64,000 nucleotides of DNA from NCBI GenBank assembly GCA_016206175.1, contig JACQSB010000028.1, positions 2,313 to 66,312 on the forward strand, in the 5' to 3' direction. Shown here one piece after another: positions 7,494 through 62,722 of this stretch (position 1 is the first letter of the stretch; the number at the start of each line of letters is the position of its first letter). The position numbers were made by a program, and so were the translations under genes. Source of the stretch: Candidatus Uhrbacteria bacterium. Its GTDB lineage: Bacteria; Patescibacteriota; Patescibacteriia; JACQRZ01. The notes under the pieces are model-generated. The model was not told where the DNA came from and did no database searches. It saw only the letters and a list, made by a program, of their open reading frames with translations.

Positions 7494-7494
7494 A

Positions 7495-23177: not shown

Positions 23178-23306
23178 AATAATATCAGTGAAGCAGAACA
23201 TATGGCGTTTGACAAGCTTTCTTCTTCTTGCCGAACACGATTTATTTTCGTACACTGCTTTAGCGCTTATGGCAGATATTTTTTTACCAATAATACGGCA
23301 ACACGA

Positions 23307-32887: not shown

Positions 32888-33982
32888 ATGATGTACAACG
32901 ACCGCAATTCGTACACAGTAGAGAGTGTGACCTCCGGTCATCCCGATAAAATTTGCGATCAGATCTCTGACGCAGTACTCGATGAGTGCTTGAAGCAGGA
33001 TCCTTATTCACGGGTCGCTGTTGAAACCTTTGGTTGCCATGGGCTGCTTGTCGTTGGAGGTGAGTTGACCAGTTCCGCGAAAGTTGACTTTGAAGCAGTC
33101 GCGCGAGGAGTATATCGCGATATCGGGCATGATGGTGATCTGGAGGTCAAAACGCGTGTGGTGCAACAGTCGCCGGATATCGCGCAAGGAGTGGATACCG
33201 GCGGTGCCGGAGATCAGGGCATCATGTACGGCTACGCAACAGATGAGACGCCGGAGTATTTGCCAAGCGCAGTGGTGAAAGTGCACGAGCTTGCCCGCGG
33301 CTTGGAACACTTGCGGCGTACCAACCCTCTTTTTTCTTGGGTAAAACCGGATGGTAAGACGCAGGTTACCATGCGTGATGGCCGGATTGCTACGGTATTG
33401 ATCAGCACCCAGCATGATGAGGCGATAGACCAAGCAGCGATCAAAGAGCTTTTGACAGAACATCTTATCAAACCAACAATCGGGGATCTTGGCGGTATCG
33501 AAATCCTGGTAAATCCGACCGGCAAATTTGTGCTCGGTGGATTTGACGCCGATGCGGGGCTTACGGGCCGTAAGCTCATGGTGGATACGTATGGAGGGTT
33601 GATCCCCCATGGCGGCGGTGCGTTCTCCGGGAAGGACGCGACAAAAGTGGATCGTTCTGCGGCATATATGGCGCGCTTTGCGGCGAAAAATGTAGTGGCA
33701 AATGGGTATGCAAAACGATGCCTGGTGTCAGTGGCATACGCGATTGGCCGTGTAGAGCCGTTGATGGTGGAAGCAGTAAATGAAAATGGCGAGAGCATTG
33801 CGGATGTGGTGCAAGAGAAATTTGATTTTCGCCCTCGCGCAATCATTGACCGGCTTGGATTGCGGCGGCCGGTGTATCGCTCCACCGCGGCATACGGACA
33901 TTTTACGGATGTACATGCGCCGTGGGAGCAGGTAACTGATTTATCTGCCGTGAGTGTAAATGAGAAAGTCGCGGTTTTATAA
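32888..33982 (+). CDS. metK: S-adenosylmethionine synthase
   Basis: GHPDKICDQISDAVLD, GAGDQGIMYGYA and GGGAFSGKD motifs. Confidence 0.95.
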   Translation: MMYNDRNSYTVESVTSGHPDKICDQISDAVLDECLKQDPYSRVAVETFGCHGLLVVGGELTSSAKVDFEAVARGVYRDIGHDGDLEVKTRVVQQSPDIAQGVDTGGAGDQGIMYGYATDETPEYLPSAVVKVHELARGLEHLRRTNPLFSWVKPDGKTQVTMRDGRIATVLISTQHDEAIDQAAIKELLTEHLIKPTIGDLGGIEILVNPTGKFVLGGFDADAGLTGRKLMVDTYGGLIPHGGGAFSGKDATKVDRSAAYMARFAAKNVVANGYAKRCLVSVAYAIGRVEPLMVEAVNENGESIADVVQEKFDFRPRAIIDRLGLRRPVYRSTAAYGHFTDVHAPWEQVTDLSAVSVNEKVAVL

Positions 33983-43464: not shown

Positions 43465-44308
43465 CAGTATACCTCCATCATATTCTTTTTTTCGACGTAC
43501 AATTCTGACTTGGTACCGCAAACACGGCCGTCACGATCTGCCGTGGCGCACAACGCGCGATCCCTATAACATTCTCGTGTCCGAAGTGATGCTACAACAA
43601 ACGCAGATACCACGTGTTATTCAAAAATATCGTGAGTTTCTTCGCGCGTTTCCTACATTGCGCGCGCTTGCCGCTGCACGTGCTCGCGATGTCCTCTCCT
43701 GTTGGCAAGGTCTGGGCTATAACCGTCGAGGGCTCTATTTGCAACGAGCAACACAGCAGATCATGGATCGCTTTCACGGAACGTTTCCAAAGAATGTTGC
43801 GCAACTTGAGTCATTGCCTGGGATCGGACCATACACTGCGCGTGCGGTAGCTGTGTTTTCTTGGAATAGCCCCGAGCTTCTTCTCGAGACCAACATCCGT
43901 CGTGTTATGTTGCATTTTTTCTTTCCCGATCAAGACCGAGTACCAGACTCGCTTATTGAGCCGTTGCTGCAAAAGGTCTTGTATAAAAAAGACCCGCGTA
44001 CGTGGTATTGGGCATTGATGGATTACGGAGCAGGGCCGCTCAGAAAAATCATGAATCCGAATCGGCGCAGTAAACATTACTCAAGGCAATCGAAGTTTGA
44101 AGGTTCGCGCCGGTATGTCCGCGCGAAAGTCGTATCGTTATTGCTTTCTCGTAAACGGGCAATGGCATCAGATGCTATCGTTCGTGTTCTTACAAACGAC
44201 ACACACTGCAAAGAGTATGTCATGCGCCACGGCATTAGCGAAGTCCTTGATGCGCTTGTGCGTGAGGGCATGATACAACTCAACGGACGCTCTTATGCTG
44301 CTGCCTAG
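43457..44308 (+). CDS. mutY: HhH-GPD adenine glycosylase (MutY-like)
   Basis: LPWR..RDPY.ILVSEVMLQQTQ and the HhH motif LPGIGPYTARAV. No 4-Cys cluster loop was seen. The alternative start is ATG 43439. Confidence 0.75.
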   Translation: MASSIPPSYSFFRRTILTWYRKHGRHDLPWRTTRDPYNILVSEVMLQQTQIPRVIQKYREFLRAFPTLRALAAARARDVLSCWQGLGYNRRGLYLQRATQQIMDRFHGTFPKNVAQLESLPGIGPYTARAVAVFSWNSPELLLETNIRRVMLHFFFPDQDRVPDSLIEPLLQKVLYKKDPRTWYWALMDYGAGPLRKIMNPNRRSKHYSRQSKFEGSRRYVRAKVVSLLLSRKRAMASDAIVRVLTNDTHCKEYVMRHGISEVLDALVREGMIQLNGRSYAAA

Positions 44309-45360
44309 TAGAACGAATAGCCGGTCAGGGCTTGCTCTTTGCGTTTTTCAAACGTTTCTTTTGAAATCTTTTTTGCCTTGTACAATCTTTCCAATGCCTT
44401 GGTCATTGTCACCATGCCTTCTTCTCCGCCGGTCTGCATGACGGAGTTGATCTGCTCAAAGTTGCCGGATCGGATGATATTTGCCACCGCTTTCGTATTG
44501 ATGAGGATTTCTCGCGCCGCGACCAGTGCGCCGGCATCCGAAGGGACGAGCTGTTGAAAGATTACTGCCCGGAGGTTTTCGGCAAGCTGCGTTTTGATTT
44601 GGCGCTGTTCGTGTGGTTCGAAGATATCAATAACGCGCAGTATCGTGGATGCCGCGCTTGACGTATGCAGCGTTGAAAATACCAAATGCCCCGTTTCCGC
44701 GATCCGCAGCGTTTGCTCTACTGTATCTTTATCCCGCATTTCACCCACCATGATAACATTTGGGTCTTGGCGAAATACCGTGCGGAGAGCGGAATCAAAT
44801 GTCGGCGAGTCGATGCCGATCTCCCGCTGTTCCACGGCGCTTTGCTTATGCTCAAAGACATATTCGATCGGATCTTCTACAGTGATGATTTTGCATGTTC
44901 GTTCAGCATTGATTGCGTTTAACATCGCCGCAAGCGTTGTGGATTTCCCGCTTCCCGTAGGGCCGCAGACCAGAATCAGGCCGTGTCGCAGCTTGGTGAG
45001 CGTGCGCTCTGTTTCGCCTAGGTTGATATCATCAAATGTCGGAATGTCTGCTTTGATAATGCGCGCGCAGAGCGCCGCATGCCCCCGTTCGTAGTGTACA
45101 TTGATACGCAGGCGTTCGTTGCGTGAAAACGCGTAAGCAAAGTCCGTATCACAGCGCTGCGCGAGTTCATCTTTCGCCTTTGGCGTAAGCACTTGCGCGA
45201 TAAGTGCGTCGAGAGCCGCATCATCGAGAATATCACCGTTATAGTCGGCAAGCTCTCCATTGATGCGCAGCTGCGCACTCTTGCCAAACATCAGATGGAT
45301 ATCTGACGCATTCTTTGCGTACGCCTCTTTGTACATGTCGTAAAAGGAGAGTTTTGCCAT
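44305..45360 (-). CDS. pilT: Type IV pilus retraction ATPase PilT
   Basis: Walker A (VCGPTGSGKSTT), the Asp box, Walker B (VGEMRD) and the His box (FSTLHT). Confidence 0.9.
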   Translation of the reverse strand: MAKLSFYDMYKEAYAKNASDIHLMFGKSAQLRINGELADYNGDILDDAALDALIAQVLTPKAKDELAQRCDTDFAYAFSRNERLRINVHYERGHAALCARIIKADIPTFDDINLGETERTLTKLRHGLILVCGPTGSGKSTTLAAMLNAINAERTCKIITVEDPIEYVFEHKQSAVEQREIGIDSPTFDSALRTVFRQDPNVIMVGEMRDKDTVEQTLRIAETGHLVFSTLHTSSAASTILRVIDIFEPHEQRQIKTQLAENLRAVIFQQLVPSDAGALVAAREILINTKAVANIIRSGNFEQINSVMQTGGEEGMVTMTKALERLYKAKKISKETFEKRKEQALTGYSFY

Positions 45361-45378: not shown

Positions 45379-45416
45379 TTGATATAATGCTATCATTTTG
45401 ATATAATGCTATCATT
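45379..45416. repeat. Perfect tandem duplication, 2 x 19 bp (TTGATATAATGCTATCATT)
   Basis: Read directly in the pilT-proximal intergenic region. Each copy contains a TATAAT-like hexamer. Confidence 0.9.
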
Positions 45417-45596: not shown

Positions 45597-46820
45597 ATGG
45601 CAATAGAAAGTAGGATTTCTGAAAGAGTAGCAGCTCAGGAGCAGAAAGACGTTCTACAAAAGCCGGAGAGTCCCAAACAGCAGCTTGAGAAACTTACTGC
45701 TGAACTTACGGCACTTACCGCAAGAATCAAAGAGCGTGCCGAGCCCGTTCATACAGCAGCCGTCATTCAAGAACACGATGCTTCTCTGCAAAAGTTCGCA
45801 GCGGAGTCTAACGTTTCTACCCAAGAAGCTGCGTCGACACCTGAAGAAACTGCTCAAGTTGCGACAGAGGTAGATGAACGCAACACAAGGATGAGCGAAT
45901 TGCTTCAAGACGTTTCCGACATAGAAGTTCTCCTGGCTACCTACGGCGAAACAACTCCGACACGGGAGGCGCAAGAACAAACCGCAGAGGACAGGCCTGA
46001 AGAGCAGTTCACACAGTCGAGTCAACCACACGGTTCTGACGCAGCGACCGAAGATTTTTTGCGTTCTTGGCGAGAAACAAGGACCCAACGAAAGCTTCAG
46101 AAACGCGAAAAAGAGGAATCTGATACAAAGTCATCACAGAGTGAAAGGAGAGAGGTGCGCACTGATGAGTTGGAACAAGAGCTGCTTATGCAACGAGGAT
46201 ACCTTAATGAAAGTCAAGAACAGGTACATAATTACCAAAAAAAATTAGATGCTAATAATAAAACAAGAGAAGAATTAAATGAAGCGAAAGAAAAAATAAA
46301 TCAAGACATCGAAGGAACAGAGAATCGTATTACAAACGGCGAGCAGGCTGCCAGGCAACAAGAAGAGCTTATTCAAACCACGTCAACTGATATTGAAACA
46401 TTATCACAACAACTCCGAGAGCTCCAAGGTAGATCCTCGGCAGAGAAAGATAAGGACGCAAGAGCAGCCCTTGAAAATGAGATTCAACGCGTACAAGAAA
46501 CCATCGTAGAGAAGAAAAACGCGCTTTCTACTTACCAAGAGCAACTGCGAGCAATCAAAGAAAATCTTGAAAAGGACAAAGAGCATCTTTCTCATGTAGA
46601 ACAACAGAAGAAGGAGCTCCTCTCTAGAGAAGTAGAGCTTATGAAAGAACAACAAGAACTGCAAAGTGATATCGAACAAGCACAACGCGACGTCATCGGA
46701 CACCAACAGAACATAGAAAAAATAAAAGATATTATCGAACAGTTGGAGAAAAATCCGGATCTAGACATGACATATATACTGCCCAATCGAGGAGGAAGTA
46801 TTATAATTAAAACGAAGTAA
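45597..46820 (+). CDS. Acidic coiled-coil protein (407 aa)
   Basis: E/Q/K-rich heptad-like sequence over most of its length, in an AT-rich coding region. Confidence 0.7.
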   Translation: MAIESRISERVAAQEQKDVLQKPESPKQQLEKLTAELTALTARIKERAEPVHTAAVIQEHDASLQKFAAESNVSTQEAASTPEETAQVATEVDERNTRMSELLQDVSDIEVLLATYGETTPTREAQEQTAEDRPEEQFTQSSQPHGSDAATEDFLRSWRETRTQRKLQKREKEESDTKSSQSERREVRTDELEQELLMQRGYLNESQEQVHNYQKKLDANNKTREELNEAKEKINQDIEGTENRITNGEQAARQQEELIQTTSTDIETLSQQLRELQGRSSAEKDKDARAALENEIQRVQETIVEKKNALSTYQEQLRAIKENLEKDKEHLSHVEQQKKELLSREVELMKEQQELQSDIEQAQRDVIGHQQNIEKIKDIIEQLEKNPDLDMTYILPNRGGSIIIKTK

Positions 46821-46833
46821 GACGTAACGTATT

Positions 46834-47094
46834 ATGCTTGATCCTGCTATCAAACGAATAATTGATGAGAAAATTCTTGATTTGAAAAAGCAAAAACTTT
46901 CTCCTGTTGTATTTCAAGCGAGAGCCCGACTTGCTGTGTATGAAGTAGCGCAAAAAGCGCTTTCCGCCATATTCTTAAAAATTTCACGAGCAGATCAGAA
47001 TATGAAGCAGTCATTACTGGCGATACGGAATAAGCGTCTCGCTCGGATCGAACAACGCGCGATAAGTCTCATACGAGATAAACTAAAAGCGTAG
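46834..47094 (+). CDS. Hypothetical 86-aa helical protein
   Basis: ATG start 13 nt after the upstream stop. No family was recognised. Confidence 0.5.
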   Translation: MLDPAIKRIIDEKILDLKKQKLSPVVFQARARLAVYEVAQKALSAIFLKISRADQNMKQSLLAIRNKRLARIEQRAISLIRDKLKA

Positions 47095-47172
47095 TATTTT
47101 TGTCACTTTTTGCAATTTTCTTTTTTATTGTATACTACCCTCATCCATTATCCATCACTTTTCTGTAAATCT

Positions 47173-50100
47173 ATGAAAAGACTTGCGTTTTTCGTTTTGA
47201 TCGGCGCGCTTCTTATGCCTGCCGGAAATCTTCAGGCTCAATTAGCGAAGCCGACGATCACCTCTTTTGAGGTTACGGGAGGCTATTTTCTGATTGAAGG
47301 TGAAAATGCGACATTTTCCTGGAAATCGGAGAATGCGTCTTACTGTATGGCCGACGGAGACTGGTCCGGCACGCGAGATGCGTCAGGGTCTTTTGATCTC
47401 TACATCACCAGCACGGTTGGATACGCGCGGTATCAGTTAGTTTGCTATGATTCCCTCGGCAATCGCAGTTCATCTGCTGTCTTGACTCCGTTTGTAGGGT
47501 CATCCGGTTTCAAAAAACAACAGGGCAGCTTGGCGGTTGTTTCTGCAAAAGTGACATCTACTGATCCGAATAACGCCACCATTGTTGCGGAAATGACGCA
47601 AACACCCGCGGCCGCTTCGATCGTATTGCACGAGATGACAACCGGACCTGCTGATCCGGCTGATAAATTGAGTATGTTTTTGCCCTCAACAGCGCTGACG
47701 AGCGGAACCGTAACTTTCCGTTTTGACGGTCCCGCACGGCCAACTGCAGGTAAATCATACGCGTACACAATCACGGCTCAAGGCGTGAACGCGACCGACA
47801 TTACGACATATTCAGGCACTATCACGATTGACGTTGATTTTAAGGTGGAGTCGACGCGTACTGACGCTTCTACGCAATCAACTGGGGACGGCGTCGAACG
47901 CATCGAATCAGAGAAAAATGTGTATGTGGCATTTTCACACCCTGCAAAAAACGTAACAACAACTGTTACTTCCTTTGATCAGGCAGGCACGCAGCTTACC
48001 AGTGAATACGTGAAGACATACGAGTACCCTTCCTACCTTTATCAGAATGATCAGAAAGGCTTTGCGGCAGGAACATTTTCTAACCTTCCGCGTGGGAGAA
48101 AGTTTCAATATGTTGTTAAAGGGCAGGAGCGGGGAAGCGGCAAGCCGGCCAGTTATACCGGCACGTTTACGACAGCGCCCGAGATTTTGGTTTCAGAGGG
48201 AGATATTATGCCATCTTATACGGAAGCCTATATTACTTGGAAGACAAACGTGCCAACCGGTAGCGCGATCGAATATTATACAACTGACCCCAAGAACACC
48301 CAGTTTGCCTTTAGCGAGCAGGAGTATCCGCAAACATTCCATAAAGTGACTGTAAAAGACCTCAAGCCGGATACCGAGTATAAAGCAATCATCCACGCGT
48401 ATATCCACAATGAAGGCGGCGAAACGGATACCACGAAGAAAATGACGCCCCTTACGTTCCGCACAAAAGTGGCGACGCAGGATATGATCGTCTGCCCCGA
48501 AGTATATGCGCCGGTCTGCGGAAAAGACAACAAGACATATTCAAACAGCTGCAAGGCCAAAGCCGCTAACGCTTCAGTCGCGTATGAGGGTTCGTGCAAG
48601 CCATTTAAGATCAGCTCTCTTCGTGTAGATAAACTTGACGCGTTAGGAAAGTCAGCGGAGGACGAACGGTCGTTTGCGATCAGCACCAGTGATCCATTCA
48701 GCAAAATCGTCATTTCTCTTTGGGAAGCGCCGAATACATCAATAACGCAACCAACGTACACTACGGCGACGATCCAAGGGAATGGAACGCTTACGTCGAT
48801 ATATGTCAGTCCCGGTGTATTCGATAAGAAATTGCGGCCGAATAAAACGTACAAGTATCTCGTGACGGCATACAAATACGGCGCGACAGAGGACCTTAAT
48901 ACCAGCGTAGGGGATACGTTTACCACATCAGATTTCACTCCTTCAAAATGGCCCTCGAATCAATTCAACATTGAAAAAGTTGAAGTGTCATCCTTTGATA
49001 ATGCCGGCAATCCTGCACAAGATACGCGCACTTTTACGGTATGGATGAATGCTCCTTTTTCAAAGATTACAATCAACGTATGGAAGGTGCCATTCTCAGG
49101 CGAGATTAACTGGCCTACCGCTCTTTCCGGCGCTCCTTATACATCCGAAAGCACAAAAGGTGATGGGTCGACAAGCAAAGTAACACTTGCCCCGACGTTC
49201 GATAAAAAGTTTTTGCCCAACACGCGATATGCCTACACCGTTTTGGCAGATTTGTATAACTCATCACAGAGTACTCTCATCAACTCGAATACTTTTTCTC
49301 AAGGTACGTTCACCACATCAGACTTTACACCCTCGAAAGGTGTGCCGATCACGCTTGAAGGCAGAGTATATACCGCAGGCGATGAAAAAGAAGAGATGCT
49401 CTACCGCGACTTTGGTGTCACGTATAAGACAGATCTCTTTAAAGGCAAAAAGACCGAAACGCTTTCCGTCTATGAGCAAGCGACAAACAAACGCATTGCA
49501 TATAAAGATTTAAGTAATGAGCAGTCATTCGTTGACAACTTACATGCAAATACAACGTACCGGTATCTCTACGAGATCACTGACGAGTATGGCACATACG
49601 GGGCTGCACAGGGTTCGTTCACCACAGGAACACCGCCGGTCAAAAAACTCGAAGGCCGCGTGTATACCGCGGGCGAAGAGAAATACGAAGCGTTGTACCG
49701 TGATTTCGGTGTGTCGTACAAAGCCGCTGATTTTAAAGGAAAACTCACCCAAATACTGGAGGTATTTGAATTGCCAAGCAACACACGTATTGCGAAGAAA
49801 GATTTGGCGTATGAGCACTCGTTTGTCAGTGGTCTGAAGCCGAAGACGAAGTACCGGTATCTATACGAAATCATTGACGAGCGGGGCGTGACTGGCAGAG
49901 CAGAAGGGACATTTGAGACCAGTACACCTCCGAAACCAAAAGAAGAAAAACAGGAATTTGCTGTCCGCACTGTTCGTGTGGAAAAGCAGACACAAGTTAC
50001 CGCGGATGGCGGCATTGAGCCTATTGAGAGTGCGTACGACCTTTATCCAACATTCAGCCGTCCGGCAAAGGAAGTCAAACTTGACGTGTATCAGAAAAAG

Positions 50101-51279
50101 GATAACTCGCGCGTATCGAGCTATACGTATCCTGAACAATTCGTCACTGCAGATAAAACGAGCTTTGCTTTGAGCGTATTCGGCCTTGAATCAGCAACTG
50201 ACTATCGGTATATCATTACCGGCCGCGCGCAAGATACTGGCGAGCTCGCGCGATACGAAGGAGAGCTCAAGACGTCAGCATTCAAAAAGAGTGCGATTTC
50301 AGAAGTGCCTCCGACACCTAAAGTGACACCACCTCCGGATTCATCCGAGCACGGGCAAATTTGCGGCCAAGCGATCACGTATGGTCGCAATCCTGCAAAC
50401 GGACAAGTGAGACAGTTTCCTACGACGTGTTTGCCCGAAGGTTGGGAGCAGGTTCCGTATTCAGAGATCATCGGAGTGCCTGTTGAAAAGCCAACGCAGG
50501 GCGTTTCTGATGACAAGCGTGAAGAGCAAGCGCGCGCGATCGAAGAGAAAGCAAAACTTCTGACCGAACGCAAACTCGACGCGGTGCTTTCCGAGCTCCA
50601 GCAATTACGTGATAAGGTTAAAGAGCAGGAAACAGAGTTAAAATATCTCAAAAAGATTTCCACCGACGTCGGAAAGCTCGCCGAGGCCATGCAGGAAGCG
50701 CTTACCACCTTCGTTACCTACGGTGTGGACTCCAATACCAAATATCTCGGAGCAGGTGAACGCGCCGCTGTGGTGCGTTCCTATCAGACAGCATACGGCA
50801 AGCTGCCGGATAGCGATAAAGAGCTTGAAGATATGATCCGCATCGCAAACGGCAGATTTCCTTCGGAACGCAACGAGACAGCGGAAAAGCGGGCGAATTT
50901 GCAATTCAAGCGTATCTTCAAGCGCGTTGCAAATCTGCGCAATGACAATGATCGAGCGGCGATCATGGTGATGGCATACGGACTGCGGCAGGCTGCGGAA
51001 AATCGCAATATGCAGAGCGAGGCACGAGGCATTACAACGTTCAAAGCAATCTATGACCATACGCCGCAGAGCCCCGAAGAATGGAATATCATGCAATCAA
51101 TCACATACTCCGGCGCAAGCCGCAAGAAAGACAGCGATAAAGATCTGCTCGCCGATGAAGATGAAAAAGATTACGGTACTGACCCGAATAATCCTGACTC
51201 GGACGGCGATGGATTTGCCGATGGTTTGGAAGTAGAAAACGGATTTAATCCGGCAGGGGAGGGGAAATTTGAGGCATAG
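47173..51279 (+). CDS. Giant secreted repeat protein (1368 aa): beta-modules, Kazal-like domain, coiled coil, C-terminal TSP3-like calcium-binding repeat
   Basis: Signal peptide at ATG 47173 (MKRLAFFVLIGALLMPAGNLQA). A Kazal-like segment (CPEVYAPVCGKDNKTYSNSC...C) is encoded at 48492-48597, and the C-terminus reads DPNNPDSDGDGFADGLEVENGFNP. Confidence 0.85.
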   Translation: MKRLAFFVLIGALLMPAGNLQAQLAKPTITSFEVTGGYFLIEGENATFSWKSENASYCMADGDWSGTRDASGSFDLYITSTVGYARYQLVCYDSLGNRSSSAVLTPFVGSSGFKKQQGSLAVVSAKVTSTDPNNATIVAEMTQTPAAASIVLHEMTTGPADPADKLSMFLPSTALTSGTVTFRFDGPARPTAGKSYAYTITAQGVNATDITTYSGTITIDVDFKVESTRTDASTQSTGDGVERIESEKNVYVAFSHPAKNVTTTVTSFDQAGTQLTSEYVKTYEYPSYLYQNDQKGFAAGTFSNLPRGRKFQYVVKGQERGSGKPASYTGTFTTAPEILVSEGDIMPSYTEAYITWKTNVPTGSAIEYYTTDPKNTQFAFSEQEYPQTFHKVTVKDLKPDTEYKAIIHAYIHNEGGETDTTKKMTPLTFRTKVATQDMIVCPEVYAPVCGKDNKTYSNSCKAKAANASVAYEGSCKPFKISSLRVDKLDALGKSAEDERSFAISTSDPFSKIVISLWEAPNTSITQPTYTTATIQGNGTLTSIYVSPGVFDKKLRPNKTYKYLVTAYKYGATEDLNTSVGDTFTTSDFTPSKWPSNQFNIEKVEVSSFDNAGNPAQDTRTFTVWMNAPFSKITINVWKVPFSGEINWPTALSGAPYTSESTKGDGSTSKVTLAPTFDKKFLPNTRYAYTVLADLYNSSQSTLINSNTFSQGTFTTSDFTPSKGVPITLEGRVYTAGDEKEEMLYRDFGVTYKTDLFKGKKTETLSVYEQATNKRIAYKDLSNEQSFVDNLHANTTYRYLYEITDEYGTYGAAQGSFTTGTPPVKKLEGRVYTAGEEKYEALYRDFGVSYKAADFKGKLTQILEVFELPSNTRIAKKDLAYEHSFVSGLKPKTKYRYLYEIIDERGVTGRAEGTFETSTPPKPKEEKQEFAVRTVRVEKQTQVTADGGIEPIESAYDLYPTFSRPAKEVKLDVYQKKDNSRVSSYTYPEQFVTADKTSFALSVFGLESATDYRYIITGRAQDTGELARYEGELKTSAFKKSAISEVPPTPKVTPPPDSSEHGQICGQAITYGRNPANGQVRQFPTTCLPEGWEQVPYSEIIGVPVEKPTQGVSDDKREEQARAIEEKAKLLTERKLDAVLSELQQLRDKVKEQETELKYLKKISTDVGKLAEAMQEALTTFVTYGVDSNTKYLGAGERAAVVRSYQTAYGKLPDSDKELEDMIRIANGRFPSERNETAEKRANLQFKRIFKRVANLRNDNDRAAIMVMAYGLRQAAENRNMQSEARGITTFKAIYDHTPQSPEEWNIMQSITYSGASRKKDSDKDLLADEDEKDYGTDPNNPDSDGDGFADGLEVENGFNPAGEGKFEA
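49354..49941 (+). repeat. Two tandem 294-nt (98-aa) coding repeats inside the giant protein gene
   Basis: Each unit starts with LEGRVYTAG(D/E)EK.E.LYRDFGV.YK and ends with TYRYLYEI.DE.G, at 49354-49647 and 49648-49941. Confidence 0.8.
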
Positions 51280-51284
51280 CAGCT

Positions 51285-52055
51285 ATGCCTCAACATACAT
51301 TCTACGGACGCAAGCGCAATCTTTTTGACCCACATTCAACAGCGCCGTTTAAGCTCTCACGATCCAAAATCGAGCTCTTCACCAAGTGCGCGCGTTGTTT
51401 TTATCTTGATCGCCGTTTAGGCATCGCGCAGCCGCCGGGATTTCCCTTTAATCTCAACTCCGCCGTTGACCACCTACTGAAAAAAGAATTCGATATCCAT
51501 CGCGCAAAAAGCAAGGCGCATCCGCTTATGGCAAGTTATGGTCTTGACGCTGTGCCGTACGCGCATGAGCAGCTCGACGAATGGCGTGATCCGTTTCGGG
51601 GTATTACATATCATCATAAACCCTCCAATCTGCTCGTCACCGGCGGAGTTGATGATGTCTGGATCAATCCTTCCACCAAAGAACTCATCGTCGTTGATTA
51701 CAAAGCCACCAGCAAAGATACCGAGGTCACAATAGATGCTCCATGGCAAGATTCATATAAACGGCAGATGGAAGTGTATCAGTGGCTGTTCCGCCAAAAT
51801 GGGCACTCTGTATCAAATACGGGATATTTTGTATACTGTAATGGGAAGCGGGACGCCGAAGCGTTTGACGGCCGGCTTGAGTTTGATATCAAGCTGATAC
51901 CCTATGAGGGATCTGATGAATGGCTTGACCATACGCTTCTTAGCATACGATCGTGCTTGAACTCTGCTTCTATCCCCATCGCTTCGCGTATGTGCGATTA
52001 TTGCCAATATGCGACAGCAGTAGGGGATGCCCTCCGTGATCCGCTCTTCACTTAA
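51285..52055 (+). CDS. PD-(D/E)XK nuclease with four Cys (Cas4/AddB-nuclease-like)
   Basis: GGVDDV...VVDYKAT (D...DxK), QMEVYQWL (QxxxY), an N-terminal CARC and a C-terminal CDYC. Confidence 0.7.
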   Translation: MPQHTFYGRKRNLFDPHSTAPFKLSRSKIELFTKCARCFYLDRRLGIAQPPGFPFNLNSAVDHLLKKEFDIHRAKSKAHPLMASYGLDAVPYAHEQLDEWRDPFRGITYHHKPSNLLVTGGVDDVWINPSTKELIVVDYKATSKDTEVTIDAPWQDSYKRQMEVYQWLFRQNGHSVSNTGYFVYCNGKRDAEAFDGRLEFDIKLIPYEGSDEWLDHTLLSIRSCLNSASIPIASRMCDYCQYATAVGDALRDPLFT

Positions 52056-52072
52056 TCTCTAAAAAAGTGCGT

Positions 52073-53062
52073 ATGATCTTATTTCTTAAAATCATCCTTC
52101 TTTTCAGCGCTGTTACCGGTTTTCTGATCAGTTTCTATCTTTTCCATAAAAAACGGTCCCGCGAAACACTCATATGCCCGGTGGGATTCAAATGCAATGA
52201 AGTATTGCACAGCAAATACTCGCGTTTTTTCGGCATACCGGTTGAGCTTCTCGGTATCCTTTATTATGGATTCGTGATTGTCGTATATACGATCATATTT
52301 CAAGTAGGCGATGTGGTATCACAGCCCATCCTCTTTTTTGTGACGAGCATTTCTGTCGCGGCATTTCTTTTCTCGCTGTACCTCACATTCATCCAGGCAT
52401 TTCAAATCAAACAATGGTGCTCGTGGTGCCTCACTTCAGCCGGCTTATCCACCTTTATTCTTTTTGCATCACTTTCTACGACGCAAGTCGATGCCATGGG
52501 GGTTCTCATAGAGTACTACGATACGTTCTTTATGGCGCATGTGGTTTCCTATGCCGTCGCGCTTGGCGTTGCCACGATTTTGGATGTATTTTTTTTCAAG
52601 TTCCTCAAAGATTTTCGCATTTCAGAGTGGGAAGCTGATGTGCTGCACACCATATCCGAGGTGCTTTGGTTCGCGTTTGGATTTGTGGTATTAACCGGAG
52701 CCGCCCTTTACTTTCCGGAAAGCGAATTTCAGAGCCAGTCGCCGACATTTCTTGCGCACCTTGCCATCATTATCGTGCAGCTCATACTACTTAGCAGCTT
52801 GAGTCTTCTGATCACACCTCGACTGCATCATATCTCTCTGAAAGAAGAACATCGCCACCAAAGCGGAGAACTGCAGCGTACCCGCCGCTGGGGATATACA
52901 TTGGCTTCGCTGTCGTTTGTCACGTGGTATTACTCTTTCTTTCTGGCGTTCGTACAATTATCAGGCGTGAGTCTTTCGTCGATTCTCTGGCTCTACGCCG
53001 GTCTTGGTTTTGTCGCTGTCGTTGCCAGTCAGGTCATTCATCGTTCGTTTGGCCACGTCTAG
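52073..53062 (+). CDS. VKOR-domain fusion membrane protein
   Basis: The N-terminal VKOR module carries CPVGFKC and a WCSWC redox motif, followed by about 5 extra TM helices. ATG 52073 is preferred over GTG 52067. Confidence 0.7.
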   Translation: MILFLKIILLFSAVTGFLISFYLFHKKRSRETLICPVGFKCNEVLHSKYSRFFGIPVELLGILYYGFVIVVYTIIFQVGDVVSQPILFFVTSISVAAFLFSLYLTFIQAFQIKQWCSWCLTSAGLSTFILFASLSTTQVDAMGVLIEYYDTFFMAHVVSYAVALGVATILDVFFFKFLKDFRISEWEADVLHTISEVLWFAFGFVVLTGAALYFPESEFQSQSPTFLAHLAIIIVQLILLSSLSLLITPRLHHISLKEEHRHQSGELQRTRRWGYTLASLSFVTWYYSFFLAFVQLSGVSLSSILWLYAGLGFVAVVASQVIHRSFGHV

Positions 53063-57746: not shown

Positions 57747-58880
57747 CTATGGCGCTTCGGTCGATCGGGGCGTCTTTTTTCTTTGCAGCTCCCGCATCAT
57801 GGTTAGATAGAAAGCGAGGTTATGATCCGATGTAAGCCGTAGCCCAAGTACTTCTTGCACGGAAAACAAATGGCGAAGATACGATTTTGAATAAGACTTG
57901 CAGGTAAAGCACGGACATTTCGCATCGAGAGGTTTTGTATCAAATTTGTATTTTTCATTTCTTACGTTCACGATTGAGTACCACGAGTTGCCAGAGGTGA
58001 TTTTTCGTTTTGTCCATACATACGTTCTGCCATGGCGGGCTTCGCGGGTGGGGATAACGCAATCAAACATATCTACCCCTCTTTGTACCGCGTCTACGAT
58101 GTCTTCCGGTTTGCCCACCCCCATGAGATAGCGCGGCTTGTCAGATGGCAGCAGTGCAGTGTTCCATGATACGACTTTGTTGCGAATACTGCGCGGCTCT
58201 CCCACGGCAAGTCCGCCGATCGCATAACCGTCAAAATCAAGTGCGGTCAGGGCGCGTACAGATTGATCCCGTAGTTTTTTATACACCCCGCCTTGCACGA
58301 TCCCAAAGAGCAGTGGCCGACGCGTAGGGGAGACGCGCTTTTGTTTCATGCGTTTTTCAAAATGTTTTTTACTCCGTTCCGCCCAGCGAAGCGTTGTTGC
58401 GAGTGATTGTTCGGCGTACTCGTACGAACACGGGTGCGGCGGACATTCATCCAGCACCATGATAATGTCAGACCCGATAGTAAGTTGCGCATCGATGACA
58501 CTTTCCGGGGTCAGTTTGATTGACGAGCCGTCAATCTCTGATTGAAATGTCACGCCGTCTGGTGTGATCTTCCGTCGTTTCGCAAGTGAAAATACTTGAT
58601 ATCCGCCACTGTCGGTTAAAAGAGGGCCGTCCCACCGCATGAAGCGATGAAGACCCCCGTGTTTTTCGAGCACCGCAAGGCCGGGGCGCTGGATAAGGTG
58701 GTAGGTATTCGATAGAATGATCTCTGCGCCGAGATTACGCAGCTCATCCGGTGAGATATTTCTTACCGCACCACGCGTTGCTATCGGCATGAAAAACGGC
58801 GTATGGATGTTTCCATGCGGGGTCTTGAGTATTCCTCGGCGAATGCCACCGTGCGGGGCATGAAGACGAAAGTATTGCAT
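57747..58880 (-). CDS. tgt: tRNA-guanine transglycosylase
   Basis: TPFFMPIATRGAV, LTDSGGYQVFSL and the zinc site CPCFTC...H. Confidence 0.95.
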   Translation of the reverse strand: MQYFRLHAPHGGIRRGILKTPHGNIHTPFFMPIATRGAVRNISPDELRNLGAEIILSNTYHLIQRPGLAVLEKHGGLHRFMRWDGPLLTDSGGYQVFSLAKRRKITPDGVTFQSEIDGSSIKLTPESVIDAQLTIGSDIIMVLDECPPHPCSYEYAEQSLATTLRWAERSKKHFEKRMKQKRVSPTRRPLLFGIVQGGVYKKLRDQSVRALTALDFDGYAIGGLAVGEPRSIRNKVVSWNTALLPSDKPRYLMGVGKPEDIVDAVQRGVDMFDCVIPTREARHGRTYVWTKRKITSGNSWYSIVNVRNEKYKFDTKPLDAKCPCFTCKSYSKSYLRHLFSVQEVLGLRLTSDHNLAFYLTMMRELQRKKTPRSTEAP

Positions 58881-58898: not shown

Positions 58899-59942
58899 TC
58901 ATTCGACAAACATCGCATCGCCGAAGCTATAAAAGCGGTAGCGTTTTTCCACTGCTATTTTATAGGCATTCAAGATGAACTGCATGCCTCCTTTGTGCTT
59001 CCATTCTGCAAACGCGCACACGAGAACAAGGAGGGTGGAATGGGGGAGATGGAAATTTGTGATCATTGCATCCGTAATACGAAAATCGTATCCGGGTGAT
59101 ATAAAAAGTTTGACATATTTTGCGCCAGACGCAAGGCTGCCGTCTTGGGCGCCAAATGCTTCCAGTGTGCGCACAGCTGTGGTGCCGAGTGCTATTATGC
59201 GACGCCCTTGTTTTTTTGCTTGCGTGATTGCTCGTGCGGTCGCCGGAGAGATCTCCGCGTATTCCGGATGCATGGTGTGATGTTCAATCTTGTCCGTTCT
59301 TATAGGAAGAAATGTGCCGATGCCGACATGGAGGGTGATGGAATGCATTTCTACGCCGATGGCCTGGAGTTTCTTGATCAGGCGTTTGGTAATATGCAGT
59401 CCTGCGGTGGGAGCGGCAACTGATCCCGGCTGCCGCGCGTATACAGTTTGGTAGTCGACGAGTCGCGCATGTTTTTTGATATATGGTGGAGTTGGCGTAT
59501 CGCCGTGCCGCCCGATATATGTGTCAAGCGCCGTGCCGCCTTTAGAAAATCGGATGACCCATGTGCCGTCAGTATTTTTGTGGATCGGGTGCGCGGTCAG
59601 TGTCGTGCTGCTTTGTAGCGCAAGCGTATGCCCTTCATTTTTTTCCGAGACATTTTTGAGTAGAGCTGCCCATCGCGCAGCCGACAACTTTTTTACCAAA
59701 AAAATCTCTACCTGTCCGCCCGTTTGTTTCTTTCCGTACAAGCGCGCAGGGATAACCTTGGAGTCGTTCCATACCAGCACATCTCCGGCGCGTAGCACGT
59801 TTGGCAAATCCGTAAATGTGAGATGGCGCATTTTTTCTTCCTGACAGTTTATTGCCAGGAGTTTGCATCCATCGCGCGGCTTTGCCGGTGTCTGCGCAAT
59901 GCTCGATTGAGGAAGGGTATAAGAAAAATTTGAAATGTTCAT
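58899..59942 (-). CDS. queA: S-adenosylmethionine:tRNA ribosyltransferase-isomerase
   Basis: N-terminal F.Y.LP...IAQ.P, PTAGLH and a C-terminal RFYSFGDAM. Confidence 0.95.
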   Translation of the reverse strand: MNISNFSYTLPQSSIAQTPAKPRDGCKLLAINCQEEKMRHLTFTDLPNVLRAGDVLVWNDSKVIPARLYGKKQTGGQVEIFLVKKLSAARWAALLKNVSEKNEGHTLALQSSTTLTAHPIHKNTDGTWVIRFSKGGTALDTYIGRHGDTPTPPYIKKHARLVDYQTVYARQPGSVAAPTAGLHITKRLIKKLQAIGVEMHSITLHVGIGTFLPIRTDKIEHHTMHPEYAEISPATARAITQAKKQGRRIIALGTTAVRTLEAFGAQDGSLASGAKYVKLFISPGYDFRITDAMITNFHLPHSTLLVLVCAFAEWKHKGGMQFILNAYKIAVEKRYRFYSFGDAMFVE

Positions 59943-60994: not shown

Positions 60995-62722
60995 ATGCCT
61001 TCCAATCACTCCCTTGAGGCGTTTGCGCCTCTGTTTCAAAAAAATGATTATACGGAAGAAGAAAAATGGTTCATCGAGCCCTTTTTTTCCAATCTTGACC
61101 GTTCTGTATACGCGCCGTACATCGTTTCGCCCGAGCTGATCGGCGCTCTGTGCTCCCGTACGAGCCGAGCGTTGCATGATTTGCGCTACCATTATCTGCG
61201 GGAGTTTGTAAAGCCGTTCGTTGATCCGGTACGCGAAGAAAAAGATACTGACGACGCGTGGAATGCAAAGGTAGCGCATGGCGGCACGTTACGCGAATTC
61301 ATTGGCTTTCTCCACCGACACTCTTTACAAGAATTATTTTCCAACCCGCGCGCGCGTTCGTTTTTCATCAAATGGCTTGCGCAATATGGCGATGATTCGA
61401 TCGCGCAAATGGCTGGCGCGCATTTGTGTTTTTCGGGTTTGTCGCAGGTGGCTATCAAGCATATTGAGGATCAACGCGTAGGCCTTGCCCCGATCGAAAA
61501 ATCCACGCGCTATGTCAATTACGGCGAGAAGGTGAATGGCCATTATTTGTACTATACGGACCCCACCTGGAAGGATCATGGTCTCAAGCAGGAATACGAG
61601 AAGGTGATGGACGGGCTGTTTGATGCGTACCGTTCGCTTCTGCCGCGTATGATCGAATATCTCCAAAAGAAATTTCCCGAAGAAAAAGCATCGGTAGTGG
61701 AAAAGAAGGCATTTGACACGCTGCGTGGCATGCTGCCGACTTCCACGCTTTCACAGGTGACATTTTTTGGCAACGGACAAGCGTTTGAATATATGATCAG
61801 CCGGTCAGCGCGACACCCGCTCGGCGAGATCCGTTGGGCGGCCGAGGCATCGTACGAAGAGCTCAAGACAATCACGCCTGCATTTTTACGCCGCCTCAAA
61901 GACGAAGAACGGAAGGAGAGCATCGAGGCATACCAAGATTACCTCACGCGCAAAGCAGATCGAGTCGCGCCGTTTGCCCGCGAAGCGGGATTGACGGTCG
62001 CCGCCGGCAATTCTGAAAGTTCTCCGTCCGTTCGGTTGGTGGAATACGATCCGGAAGGAGAGAACAAGATTATTACCGGAATGTTATACGCATCATCTCA
62101 GACGCATGCATCGTGGGAGGATACATATGGGGCAGTACAGAAAATGAGCGCTGCGAAGAAAAAAGATGTCATGGACGCATACCTTGAGGGACGGACACAA
62201 CGGTGGCAAAAAGTGGGACGAGCTTTTGAGAATGCATACTTACGCTTTGACATTATGATGAACATTGGTTCGTGGCGTGATATTCATCGGCATCGGATGC
62301 TCACGCAGCAGAAACAGCTCTTTACCTGCAGCCATGGATATGACACGCCGCAGGACGTGGTAGATGGCGGCTTTGAAAAAGAGTACCGTTCGGCTATTGA
62401 TGCCGTCGCTGCTTTGCATTCTCGCATTGTCGATCGCGACCCCTACCTTGCGCAATACTGCGTGACGCTTGCACATCGCGTACGTTTCATGCAATGGACC
62501 AATGTTCGGCAGTGTTTTTGGGAGATCGAATTGCGTACCATACCGGAAGGGCATCCGGATTACCGACACATTGAACAGGAAAAGTTTCGGTTGCTCGAAA
62601 AAGCATATCCTCTGATCACAAGCTACATGCGCGTCAATATCGGGGAGTATGAATTTGCTCGCCGAGGACAGGAAGAACGTATCCAGAAAAAGTTGCATGA
62701 CCTCTCGGCGACTTTGACATGA
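60995..62722 (+). CDS. Long (575 aa) flavin-dependent thymidylate synthase (ThyX)-like protein
   Basis: HRHRMLTQQ resembles the ThyX RHR signature and a downstream ELRT...... segment resembles the ThyX C-terminal helix. The length suggests a duplicated or extended Thy1 fold. Confidence 0.6.
   Translation: MPSNHSLEAFAPLFQKNDYTEEEKWFIEPFFSNLDRSVYAPYIVSPELIGALCSRTSRALHDLRYHYLREFVKPFVDPVREEKDTDDAWNAKVAHGGTLREFIGFLHRHSLQELFSNPRARSFFIKWLAQYGDDSIAQMAGAHLCFSGLSQVAIKHIEDQRVGLAPIEKSTRYVNYGEKVNGHYLYYTDPTWKDHGLKQEYEKVMDGLFDAYRSLLPRMIEYLQKKFPEEKASVVEKKAFDTLRGMLPTSTLSQVTFFGNGQAFEYMISRSARHPLGEIRWAAEASYEELKTITPAFLRRLKDEERKESIEAYQDYLTRKADRVAPFAREAGLTVAAGNSESSPSVRLVEYDPEGENKIITGMLYASSQTHASWEDTYGAVQKMSAAKKKDVMDAYLEGRTQRWQKVGRAFENAYLRFDIMMNIGSWRDIHRHRMLTQQKQLFTCSHGYDTPQDVVDGGFEKEYRSAIDAVAALHSRIVDRDPYLAQYCVTLAHRVRFMQWTNVRQCFWEIELRTIPEGHPDYRHIEQEKFRLLEKAYPLITSYMRVNIGEYEFARRGQEERIQKKLHDLSATLT

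Follow-up and report, generated by a model that had tools for sequence, protein, structure and literature searches.

Cas4 is a 5′→3′ single-stranded DNA (ssDNA) exonuclease and endonuclease, and in the Cas4 proteins Pcal_0546 and SSO1391 a QhXXY motif is needed for activity (PMC4176176). The cysteines of the Cas4/AddB 'iron staple' are ordered C…CX2CX5C, one in the N-terminal and three in the C-terminal part of the chain (PMC4176176). Cas4-family genes also stand alone, outside CRISPR loci. CPR bacteria, with their small genomes, have more than their share of such solo-Cas4 genes, which are mostly vertically inherited (Hudaiberdiev et al. 2017, PMC5704561), and the M. mazei Solo-Cas4 gene is another stand-alone member of the family (PMC12501428).

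The gene described here lies in a 64 kb window (the whole stretch of DNA that was analysed) from a member of the Uhrbacteria (Table 1). A sequence-only reading of the window had reported a nuclease open reading frame 5 nt downstream of a giant surface-protein gene and had quoted five motifs from it (CARC, GGVDDV, VVDYKAT, QMEVYQWL and CDYC). The frame is present, the 1389-aa upstream frame stops at position 51279, which makes the gap exactly 5 nt, and all five motifs occur in the translation. More than 8,000 homologues were found, labelled in some database entries as 'Cas4 (RecB family)'. Because these share the same N-terminus and the protein matches the PDDEXK_1 profile from end to end, the frame is on comparative grounds a real gene and not a chance ORF. 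We found no promoter-like or terminator-like sites on the + strand from the giant gene to the nuclease, so co-transcription of the two is plausible at this locus. The nuclease has no signal peptide and has a putative Cys4 metal site, and is therefore taken to be a cytoplasmic protein; a secreted nuclease acting at the pilus was rejected on the same two grounds.

Table 1. Features of the nuclease gene and its surroundings, in window coordinates
Feature	Position	Strand	Residues	Remarks
pilT-type ATPase	44305..45360	-		T2SSE, E = 2.4e-47; divergent neighbour
Block of 407-aa coiled-coil protein, 86-aa ORF and 1389-aa Kazal/FN3/TSP3 surface protein	45597..51279	+		Separates pilT from the nuclease gene
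GAGG, Shine-Dalgarno-like element	51271..51274	+		In the 3′-terminal part of the giant gene; 10 nt ahead of the nuclease ATG
Nuclease gene	51285..52055	+	256 aa	ATG start; ORF list and PDDEXK_1 match
N-terminal CX2C (CARC; C35, C38)	51387..51398	+	35-38	First half of the putative Cys staple
RecB motif II, GGVDDV	51642..51659	+	120-125	D124, predicted metal ligand
RecB motif III, VVDYKAT	51690..51710	+	136-142	(D/E)XK = D138-Y-K140
QhXXY motif, QMEVYQWL	51765..51788	+	161-168	Q161…Y165
C-terminal CX2C (CDYC; C237, C240)	51993..52004	+	237-240	Second half of the putative Cys staple
VKOR domain protein	52067..53062	+		VKOR E = 6.3e-24; downstream of the nuclease gene

Pfam PDDEXK_1 (PF12705) aligns with residues 24-244 of the protein over profile positions 2-244 of 247, with a score of 45.5 bits (E = 1.2e-11; gathering cut-off 22 bits). 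The two curated Cas4 profiles fall below their cut-offs: PF01930 (DUF83) scores 17.1 bits against 22.7, and TIGR00372 (NCBIfam) 24.6 bits against 65. The PADLOC Cas4 models give weak matches of at most 27.3 bits. An AlphaFold2 model (pLDDT 89, pTM 0.86) confidently predicts a RecB/Cas4-like fold. When this model was compared with the PDB using Foldseek, the top match was the Cas4 structure 4r5q (E = 2.2e-4), and a DinG chain, RecE, lambda exonuclease, MGME1, the Cas4 structure 8d3l, EXO5 and AddB appeared at later ranks; matches in a viral structure library were Cas4-like proteins or PD-(D/E)XK exonucleases. The top matches in both collections had a probability of about 1.0, with the likeness to characterised nucleases limited to the core (TM 0.37-0.43, 10-18% identity). 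Searches of the PDB by sequence, with the single protein and with a 42-sequence profile, returned no meaningful chain match; GH48 cellulases that came up were rejected as a spurious 20-residue alignment. By its motifs and predicted fold, the protein is thus an intact, full-length PD-(D/E)XK nuclease of the RecB/Cas4 superfamily. Its earlier description as 'Cas4-like' has to be qualified, since both curated Cas4 cut-offs are missed and the cysteine arrangement differs.

We assessed residue conservation in a close set of 42 homologues and in a divergent set of 95 sequences (the query and 94 representatives of 50%-clusters). The close set shows no variation at D123, D124, D138, K140, Q161 or Y165. 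In the divergent set, position 124 is D in 92 sequences and E in three, D138 is kept in 91 of 95 (E in four), K140 in 94, Q161 in 89 and Y165 in 91. The cysteines behave similarly: all four are invariant in the close set, and in the divergent set C35 is kept in 91/95 and C38, C237 and C240 in 88/95 each. The sequence-only reading had staked its claim on conservation of the catalytic and cysteine residues, and each is indeed present in 42/42 close homologues and in 88-94 of the 95 divergent sequences. The family also has a strongly conserved N-terminal segment of its own (residues ~46-105; PPGFPFNLNSAVDxLLKKEFDxHR…HP…WR), placed between helix 2 and the core sheet.

AddB, Cas4, Dna2 and EXO5, the 'iron-staple' nucleases, have four conserved cysteines that bridge N-terminal and C-terminal elements, and by their placement the four of this protein would do so as well. 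In the AlphaFold2 model, C35 and C38 mark the point where helix 26-34 meets helix 36-45, and C237 and C240 open the last, C-terminal helix, from where the four conserved cysteines could link the N-terminal helices to the C-terminal one. The Cas4/AddB staple architecture claimed for the protein is therefore borne out in the presence and terminal placement of four conserved cysteines, but not in their order, which is CX2C…CX2C (2+2) instead of 1+3. No cysteine is found at +5 past C240, the position of the fourth ligand in Cas4, and C224 was rejected as a candidate ligand because it is kept in only 54/95 sequences. Zn(Cys)4 sites and rubredoxin-type Fe(Cys)4 sites have CX2C…CX2C as a no less typical, indeed classic, pattern. 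With 2+2 in place of 1+3, the bound metal may be zinc, one iron atom or an Fe-S cluster, and the last of these cannot be taken for granted. No relevant paper turned up when the literature was searched for iron staples of the CX2C…CX2C type. The exchange of the canonical 1+3 staple for a 2+2 site would offer a natural experiment in the rebuilding of a structural metal site.

Taken together, we consider that the gene probably encodes a stand-alone, cytoplasmic, metal-dependent nuclease of the RecB/Cas4 branch that has a housekeeping role and came to lie next to the adhesin gene by insertion. The predicted RecB-like fold carries a complete catalytic set, D124, D138-x-K140 and Q161-x3-Y165. By analogy with SSO0001, Pcal_0546, AddB, EXO5, lambda exonuclease and RecE, from which the chemistry is inferred, D124 and D138 would coordinate one or two Mg2+ or Mn2+ ions together with a backbone carbonyl, and K140 would activate a water molecule for phosphodiester hydrolysis. 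The Cys4 site would hold a structural metal that staples both ends of the chain together and takes no part in catalysis. DNA ends are the most likely target, which the enzyme might attack as, for instance, a 5′→3′ exonuclease or an ssDNA endonuclease; because the structural likeness to characterised nucleases is core-limited, the choice between DNA and RNA and between terminal and internal cleavage is extrapolated, as is the polarity. Its most likely job would be the processing of DNA ends in repair or recombination, or DNA turnover.

The comparative evidence on gene order bears on the place of the nuclease next to a giant surface protein and near pilus genes. Conservation of the adhesin-nuclease adjacency in relatives had been set beforehand as a test, and among 80 loci the adjacency is kept only in the 88%-identical sister. 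In that relative (L001, L089) the giant gene is the only part of the upstream block that is present. In two relatives that are both 70% identical (L090, L091) the block at 45597-51279 is missing and pilT(-) and the nuclease(+) are directly adjacent; the L090 order, pilT/nuclease/VKOR/…/MTHFS/RR/pilB/…/SerRS, is collinear with the window minus 45597-51279, and the L091 order is HhH-GPD/pilT/nuclease. Because pilT adjoins the nuclease without the giant gene in these relatives, the surface-protein block is, as judged from gene order, a recent lineage-specific insertion between pilT and the nuclease. By the same comparison, pilT is the ancestral divergent neighbour of the nuclease within this Uhrbacteria clade; the pilT(-)/nuclease(+) arrangement was not seen in other candidate phyla among the 80 loci. 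The intergenic sequences next to pilT in the window and in L001, L090 and L091 are too diverged for the insertion boundaries to be aligned; the window and L001 have in common a promoter-like pair, TGATATA(A/T)TGCT, in this region.

Downstream, the VKOR fusion noted by the sequence-only reading is present, with the VKOR domain at residues 10-135 followed by a membrane extension of ~195 aa that has no Pfam match. A VKOR gene follows the nuclease in L090 (68% identity) and in L089 (81% over 31 aa, at a contig end), and is absent from beside the nuclease in L091 and in all 80 loci. Since a recent insertion put the giant gene where it is, its adjacency is no evidence of a shared function: insertion between pilT and the nuclease in one lineage would have produced the 5-nt spacing, and any co-transcription of the two genes would be a by-product. 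A shared function with the adhesin-like protein or with the pili, as had been suggested, thus finds no backing, given that the adjacency is not conserved, that a pilus ATPase lies near the nuclease in 2/80 loci and that the protein is cytoplasmic. The fallback that had been offered alongside it, a stand-alone nuclease placed there by chance, matches the comparative data. The adjacency to the giant surface protein is, judged by gene order, a lineage-specific accident.

The sequence-only reading had speculated that the nuclease processes pilus-imported DNA, and a role of this sort need not involve the adhesin. The nuclease might trim or degrade ssDNA that enters the cytoplasm through the type IV pilus and ComEC, and so serve DNA uptake or nucleotide salvage, a route by which CPR bacteria may have to obtain their nucleotides. 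Consistent with such a role, the gene lies between pilT and pilB in the window and in L090 and next to pilT in L091 and L001, and CPR bacteria possess the family widely and in strongly conserved form. A few rare relatives carry a fused nucleotide-hydrolysing domain (NUDIX in P0126 and P0278, HD_4 in P0152), and in L085 the nuclease follows a CYTH triphosphatase gene at a distance of 2 nt and has an ITPase-type NTPase in its vicinity. However, a pilus ATPase occurs within 8 kb in only 2/80 loci, no pilus or competence family is among the recurrent neighbours, and synteny with pilus genes within the clade is no stronger than with SerRS, MTHFS or VKOR. Moreover, the NUDIX-fused form is found in a planctomycete-like context rather than in CPR, and the fusions would fit DNA repair (MutT-like) equally well. 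We therefore regard an uptake or salvage role as unlikely.

We also considered how fast the family changes. Our sample of 80 genomic loci spans ~20 candidate phyla with 56-94% identity (mean 65%), figures biased upward because only the 80 best of 586 or more matches were sampled. In pairs of the same genomes, TGT falls to 35-45% identity in 6/7 pairs and the response regulator to 36-40%. The nuclease family thus appears to change much less than the genes around it. Among the best 80 loci, nuclease identity between phyla is about the same as within a phylum, and so carries scant phylogenetic signal. From the breadth of the family and the lack of any mobile-element signal, the gene is probably a slowly evolving, vertically inherited housekeeping gene of Patescibacteria (CPR). 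A tblastn search of 50,697 phage records gave no match, and a scan of 2.9 million viral contigs gave 13 loci only, most of them 59-67% identical to the query, which we take for pieces of CPR genomes and not for phages. Given the lack of matches in the phage records and the mere 13 viral-contig loci, we rejected the possibility that this is a mobile-element or phage gene.

The conservation extends over the whole length of the protein and exceeds what is usual for a generic repair nuclease, and might reflect an essential role of a more specific kind. Its unusual degree across candidate phyla, together with the lack of an operon partner, would make the nuclease a candidate for a core function of reduced-genome bacteria. 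A stronger version would see a near-universal, constrained core enzyme of Patescibacteria in which the Fe-S ligands of the Cas4 type have been rebuilt as a rubredoxin-like or zinc-like staple and which does a job essential to the CPR lifestyle. This we consider unlikely. If true, it would account for less change between candidate phyla than in tRNA-modification enzymes, and the job might be, for example, turning imported ssDNA into nucleotides or recombination substrates in cells without de novo synthesis.

The case for a stand-alone housekeeping nuclease also draws on a search for partners. The sequence-only reading had seen no CRISPR array, cas gene, helicase or AddA/B partner in the 64 kb, and none emerged from a tandem-repeat scan, Rfam, a k-mer array scan and Pfam scans of 36 ORFs, which took in all ten of at least 425 aa; of two ORFs without a Pfam match (828 and 867 aa), neither is a helicase by that measure. 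The k-mer array scan also found no CRISPR-like arrays in 108 related loci (1.3 Mb). A Pfam census of the neighbours yielded 128 families at ±1 and 137 at ±2, with no family recurring in more than 3/74 loci at either distance and no cas family among the top 25 of each; PIF1 or AAA_19/AAA_30 neighbours occur in 2/74 loci only. When neighbours within ±5 were clustered by BLAST, the largest cluster comprised seven loci. The best neighbour signal is TGT, within 7 kb of the nuclease in 7/80 loci, which we treat as unexplained residual synteny and not as a functional link. Across the loci surveyed, the nuclease thus appears as a gene without a dedicated operon partner. An AddAB or RecBCD fragment was rejected, the protein being a single 256-aa domain with no helicase in the window.

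The same census bears on whether the protein degrades invading phage or plasmid DNA in the manner of a solo-Cas4-type defence enzyme, alone or with variable neighbours. About 10% of its immediate neighbours belong to defence-type families (Mrr_cat in three loci, GmrSD_N in three, OLD-TOPRIM/AAA_15, RVT_1 and AbiEii-type AAA_21 in two each, and DNA methylases), a divergent relative (P0155) is fused to TIR and GYF domains, and the phage family phrog_31195, whose function is not known, matches at E = 2.3e-13. Roles in defence or repair have been suggested for solo-Cas4 (Hudaiberdiev et al. 2017, PMC5704561). However, defence genes are usually patchy, fast-evolving and mobile, whereas this family is broad and, among the best 80 loci, 56-94% identical. 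No defence partner occurs in more than 3/74 loci, the PADLOC matches are weak ones to Cas4 only, and the family is nearly missing from viral collections. A defence role is thus very unlikely.

Some neighbours and fusions would instead suit the processing or decay of RNA 5′ ends, with the nuclease acting in a DXO/Rai1-like manner after a NUDIX-type or CYTH-type enzyme has removed the 5′ triphosphate. The relatives fused to NUDIX and HD domains and the CYTH gene directly upstream in L085 could be read in this way, as could the RsmE rRNA methyltransferase gene that overlaps or abuts the nuclease in L081-L084, the RRM_1 protein encoded upstream in the same four loci, and the proximity of TGT. Against this, the structural neighbours of known substrate are all DNA nucleases, each RNA-related neighbour is limited to one or a few lineages, and DNA-repair neighbours (UDG, RmuC, ExoX, LexA, AP endonuclease and PIF1) are similarly scattered. 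We judge an RNA substrate of this kind highly improbable. The remaining proposal, a Cas4 for CRISPR adaptation that serves, in trans, a distant CRISPR-Cas locus of the same genome, would explain the weak similarity to Cas4 profiles and the Cas4 label on some homologues, but is effectively refuted by the two missed cut-offs, the different cysteine arrangement, the absence of arrays from the window and the 108 related loci and of cas families from the top-ranked neighbours, and, according to PMC6509639, the rarity of CRISPR-Cas in CPR genomes.

The preferred reading, a stand-alone housekeeping nuclease, can be placed among the characterised enzymes. The PF12705 family of RecB/AddB type, which the protein matches over its full length, includes stand-alone 'Cas4-like' proteins. 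In contrast to AddB, RecB and the UvrD-fused clade, the nuclease has no fused or adjacent helicase, and it differs from its PF12705 relatives in the 2+2 cysteines and in the family-specific segment between helix 2 and the core sheet. The Cas4 proteins Pcal_0546 (4r5q) and SSO0001 are of similar size and have the same catalytic motifs and four cysteines that join N- and C-terminal elements; however, the TM score to 4r5q is only ~0.4 at 18% identity, and the nuclease lacks a cas1, cas2 or CRISPR context and scores below the curated cut-offs. The eukaryotic or organellar enzymes EXO5 (7lwa) and MGME1 (5zyt) and the phage enzymes RecE and lambda exonuclease are single-polypeptide, DNA-end-processing exonucleases of the same fold class, but with 9-15% identity, TM scores of at most 0.43 and different N-terminal elements; EXO5 has an Fe-S cluster, whereas lambda exonuclease and RecE have no cysteine cluster.

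A further counterpart is the solo-Cas4 of CPR bacteria (PMC5704561), likewise a stand-alone Cas4-family gene outside CRISPR loci and without conserved context. The published set was drawn mainly from PF01930-type profiles, whereas the nuclease described here is best matched by PF12705, and selection on solo-Cas4 is near the genomic median (PMC5704561), but the family described here seems clearly better conserved than adjacent genes. The protein is thus probably a solo Cas4-like housekeeping nuclease of an ordinary kind, such as was described from CPR in 2017; its unusual features are its cysteine arrangement and its high conservation.

The nuclease gene begins at an ATG, and this start is supported by the N-terminal consensus MSxYYxxKRTRNLFDP, which is common to its homologues. 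Its translation contains all five motifs quoted in the sequence-only reading: CARC (residues 35-38), GGVDDV (120-125), VVDYKAT (136-142), QMEVYQWL (161-168) and CDYC (237-240). Also as claimed there, only 5 nt separate it from the stop codon of the upstream gene for a surface protein (the giant gene), which has Kazal, FN3 and TSP3 domains. Ten nucleotides ahead of the ATG is a GAGG element. The plus strand between the two genes shows neither a promoter-like nor a terminator-like site, and two strong sigma-70-like sites (11/12 matches) lie upstream of a 407-aa ORF at 45597, so read-through transcription into the nuclease gene is plausible. The nuclease has no signal peptide. The next gene downstream does encode a VKOR domain (residues 10-135, Pfam E = 6e-24), followed by a C-terminal membrane extension of ~195 aa without a Pfam match.

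Coordinates of the nuclease gene and other features in the window and in related loci
Sequence	Feature	Coordinates	Strand	Details
Window	VKOR-like paralogue	3730..4146	+	138 aa; second in the window, short, stand-alone
Window	ORF	12844..15330	-	828 aa; no Pfam match at E <= 1e-4
Window	ORF	20763..23366	-	867 aa; no Pfam match at E <= 1e-4
Window	SAM-I riboswitch	32661..32775	+	62.9 bits; directly upstream of the S-adenosylmethionine synthetase gene
Window	S-adenosylmethionine synthetase gene	32888..33982		
Window	Perfect 19-bp tandem duplication	45379..45416		Two copies of TTGATATAATGCTATCATT; pilT/407-aa-ORF intergenic region
Window	Putative inserted block	45597..51279		407-aa coiled-coil protein, 86-aa ORF, giant gene
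Window	Giant gene	47110..51279	+	1389 aa; stop TAG at 51277-51279
Window	Nuclease gene	51285..52055	+	256 aa
Window	VKOR gene	52067..53062	+	
Window	TGT, next to QueA	57747..58880, 58899..59942	-	
Window	ThyX (Thy1 family) ORF	60995..62722	+	575 aa, unusually long, two Thy1-matched stretches; candidate internal duplication or fusion of a flavin-dependent thymidylate synthase
L001	Giant-protein orthologue	4181..7978		Aligns as two overlapping segments
L090	pilT	107..1185		Aligns in two separated pieces; may be split or frameshifted
L090	MazE/PIN toxin-antitoxin pair	7752..8434		Between pilB and serS
L085	Locus with the CYTH triphosphatase gene	6459..7843		CYTH gene stops 2 nt ahead of the nuclease gene

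The proposal of a Cas4-like PD-(D/E)XK nuclease stands as to the enzyme class. Residues 24-244 match positions 2-244 of the 247 in the Pfam PDDEXK_1 profile (PF12705; E = 1.2e-11, 45.5 bits against a cut-off of 22), and all testable features of that family are present, but the scores against the Cas4 models PF01930 (17.1 bits) and TIGR00372 (24.6 bits) fall under the curated cut-offs of 22.7 and 65 bits. The PADLOC Cas4 models give at most 27 bits. The protein is not Cas4 sensu stricto, three characteristics of which were looked for and none found, and an identity as an AddB/RecB-type helicase-nuclease was rejected. An AlphaFold2 model built from 42 homologues is confident (pLDDT 89, pTM 0.86). 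Its top Foldseek match in the PDB is the Cas4 protein Pcal_0546 (4r5q), followed by a DinG chain, RecE, lambda exonuclease, MGME1, a type I-C Cas4, EXO5 and AddB (TM ~0.3-0.43, identity 9-18%); in a viral structure library the model matches Cas4-like and PD-(D/E)XK exonucleases. No PDB chain is detectable by sequence, profile search included, and the family is thus without a solved or characterised member.

We assessed the catalytic and cysteine residues at two depths. C35, C38, D123, D124, D138, Y139, K140, Q161, Y165, C237 and C240 are invariant in 42 close homologues. We also aligned the query to 94 full-length cluster representatives (clustered at 50% identity) taken from an exhaustive search; of these 95 sequences, K140 is kept in 94, D124 in 92 (E in 3), D138 in 91 (E in 4), Y165 and C35 in 91 each, Q161 in 89, and C38, C237 and C240 in 88 each; C224 is kept in 54. 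The loss of these residues that would have counted against the assignment is therefore not seen, and by its residues the enzyme is intact. The four-cysteine staple of Cas4 and AddB was correctly read as four conserved cysteines, but their arrangement differs, with one CX2C pair near each terminus (2+2) and no cysteine five residues past C240. C237 and C240 would be the counterparts of the first two C-terminal ligands of Cas4 and the fourth ligand would have shifted to C38, adjoining the canonical N-terminal cysteine; Cas4 profile alignments, which stop at residue 243, fit this equivalence. Zn(Cys)4 and rubredoxin sites classically have CX2C…CX2C too, and the metal may therefore be either an Fe-S cluster or a lone Fe or Zn.

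The family is large and well conserved. A word-indexed search returned at least 8000 homologues, the best 120 of which are 62-88% identical with lengths near 250 aa; Uhrbacteria and Portnoybacteria are among the names they bear. A one-genome-per-species scan found at least 586 relatives, and the best 80 loci come from Uhr-, Berkel-, Nomura-, Levy-, Taylor-, Morani-, Falkow-, Yanofsky-, Andersen-, Kuenen-, Peri-, Brenner-, Jorgensen-, Yonath-, Kerfeld- and Woykebacteria, Paceibacterota and others. All-against-all identity among these 80 and the query averages 65% (minimum 56%), these being the best hits, with 38-55%-identical members beyond them and 310 clusters at E below 1e-30. Proteins from differently named phyla are on average 66% identical, about as similar as those within one phylum (63-72%, leaving out the 88% pair of the window and its sister L001). 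Other genes compared across pairs of these genomes are less alike than the nuclease: TGT has 35-45% identity in six of seven pairs (64% in the Uhrbacteria pair with L002), the response regulator 36-40%, PilB 33% and RtcB 58%. The nuclease appears to be under strong purifying selection. A relative fused to NUDIX, 53% identical to the query, has a planctomycete-like context (Ser/Thr kinase, ECF sigma factor and SBP_bac_10/N_methyl genes), so the family is not strictly confined to the CPR. It is essentially absent from phage collections: tblastn matched no phage genome, and a scan of 2.9 million viral contigs gave 13 loci.

No pointer to a CRISPR-Cas or helicase partner was found anywhere in the window, in agreement with the sequence-only reading. 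Tandem Repeats Finder returned two tiny duplications, Rfam matched only the SAM riboswitch, a k-mer scan gave no CRISPR-like array, and Pfam scans of 36 ORFs found neither a cas gene nor a helicase. For 74 loci outside the clade we predicted ORFs and grouped the genes within five positions of the nuclease; the largest cluster covers 7 loci. The 140 immediate neighbours matched 128 different Pfam families and the 128 at ±2 matched 137, no family occurring in more than three loci. At ±1 the count of three is reached by PCMT, Mrr, GmrSD, Fic and two generic methyltransferase domains, and at ±2 by domains of RmuC, class II aminoacyl-tRNA synthetase and ExoX-type exonuclease. The nuclease gene is without a conserved partner. 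As a separate observation, a canonical gene for queuine tRNA-ribosyltransferase (TGT) lies within ~7 kb of the nuclease in the window and in 7 of the 80 loci, which are CPR loci with nothing else in common (L002, L005, L017, L023, L054, L055 and L066), where chance would give about one in genomes of ~1 Mb. The nucleases of these seven are 60-70% identical to one another, as divergent as any others, and the proximity may be residual ancestral synteny.

The suggested link to an adhesin and pili fails, because there is no conserved partner and the adjacency is restricted to the 88% relative. A tblastn search of the 80 loci with the window's neighbouring genes detected the giant protein, pilT and the HhH-GPD glycosylase solely in L001, the sister Uhrbacteria, and gave no VKOR match. 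Among annotated contigs of close relatives, L089/L001 (nuclease 88% identical) has the order pilT(-), giant gene, nuclease, VKOR. L090 (nuclease 70% identical) runs pilT(-), nuclease, VKOR (68%, a figure that also holds for its membrane extension), a single gene, MTHFS(-), response regulator, pilB (77%), MazE/PIN and SerRS (75%); compared with the window, the MazE/PIN toxin-antitoxin pair is an insertion that separates pilB from serS. L091 (70%) has HhH-GPD, pilT(-) and nuclease, then unrelated genes, and L002 (69%) has nuclease, MetRS, GIY-YIG, TGT and QueA. Because L090 is collinear with the window save for having no gene between pilT and nuclease, the ancestral order in the clade would be a divergent pilT/nuclease pair, into which a three-gene block appears to have been inserted in the window lineage; of its members L001 has the giant gene alone. 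This insertion explains the adjacency and bears out the other suggestion, that a stand-alone nuclease was placed there by chance.

The 19-bp duplication ahead of the block carries a sigma-70-like promoter (11/12; TTGATA, 17 nt, TATAAT, TG extension), and L001 has a similar TGATATA(A/T)TGCT motif pair at the equivalent position. The giant protein itself is secreted; it has a Kazal-type inhibitor domain, FN3/purple-acid-phosphatase-N-like domains and, at its C-terminal end, TSP3 repeats of the bacterial type. Its L001 orthologue aligns as if one ~310-aa internal repeat unit were absent, which suggests a surface protein of variable repeat number.

In summary, the protein combines a complete RecB-type active site and predicted fold with a conserved Cys4 site that would join the chain ends, and with solo status. 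If it works as Cas4, AddB, EXO5 and lambda exonuclease do, Mg2+/Mn2+ would be held by D124 and D138, and K140 would activate water. The QhXXY residues, which are essential in Pcal_0546 and SSO1391 (PMC4176176), would position the substrate. The Cys4-metal site is probably structural, since cysteine mutants of two Cas4 proteins drop the cluster and stay active (PMC4176176), as do those of M. mazei Solo-Cas4 (PMC12501428). The likeliest substrate would be DNA ends or single-stranded DNA, and the likeliest role either to process DNA ends during repair or recombination or to turn DNA over. We consider a solo DNA-end-processing nuclease with no adhesin link the probable explanation; most of that confidence attaches to the enzyme's identity and the missing link, and little to the specific cellular role.

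Fused and adjacent domains hint that some lineages tie the nuclease to the chemistry of nucleotide phosphates or to defence. The NUDIX fusion (P0126/P0278) forms a 90%-identity cluster of 46 member sequences, rare fusions among P0152, P0155 and P0172 carry HD_4, GYF+TIR or DUF2779 domains, and a CYTH gene adjoins the nuclease in L085. A salvage role, in which imported DNA is degraded or trimmed to yield nucleotides, would suit CPR biology as well as the NUDIX and HD fusions and the adjacent CYTH gene, but gene context supports it in a single clade only, and it is unlikely. We likewise doubt a reading in which the protein recycles DNA as an essential enzyme specific to the CPR, its metal staple having been rebuilt. 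A defence nuclease is less likely still: ~10% of neighbours are defence-type and one relative bears the TIR fusion, but the conservation pattern is opposite to that of defence genes. An RNA 5'-end enzyme is very improbable, and a CRISPR Cas4 acting in trans nearly negligible.

The solo nuclease with its 2+2 cysteines departs from Cas4, which has a C-terminal ligand at +5. Open-access literature searches found no paper on a family-wide 2+2 pattern or on above-median conservation of such a family, and both go beyond that literature. Solo-cas4 genes are conserved at the "genomic median" (Hudaiberdiev et al. 2017, PMC5704561), whereas this family, in its best 80 loci, lies well above it. Solo Cas4-family genes, which are chiefly passed on vertically and whose function is unknown, are over-represented in CPR and DPANN genomes (Hudaiberdiev et al. 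2017, PMC5704561); the nuclease fits this phenomenon, and is a candidate member of the clade those authors described.
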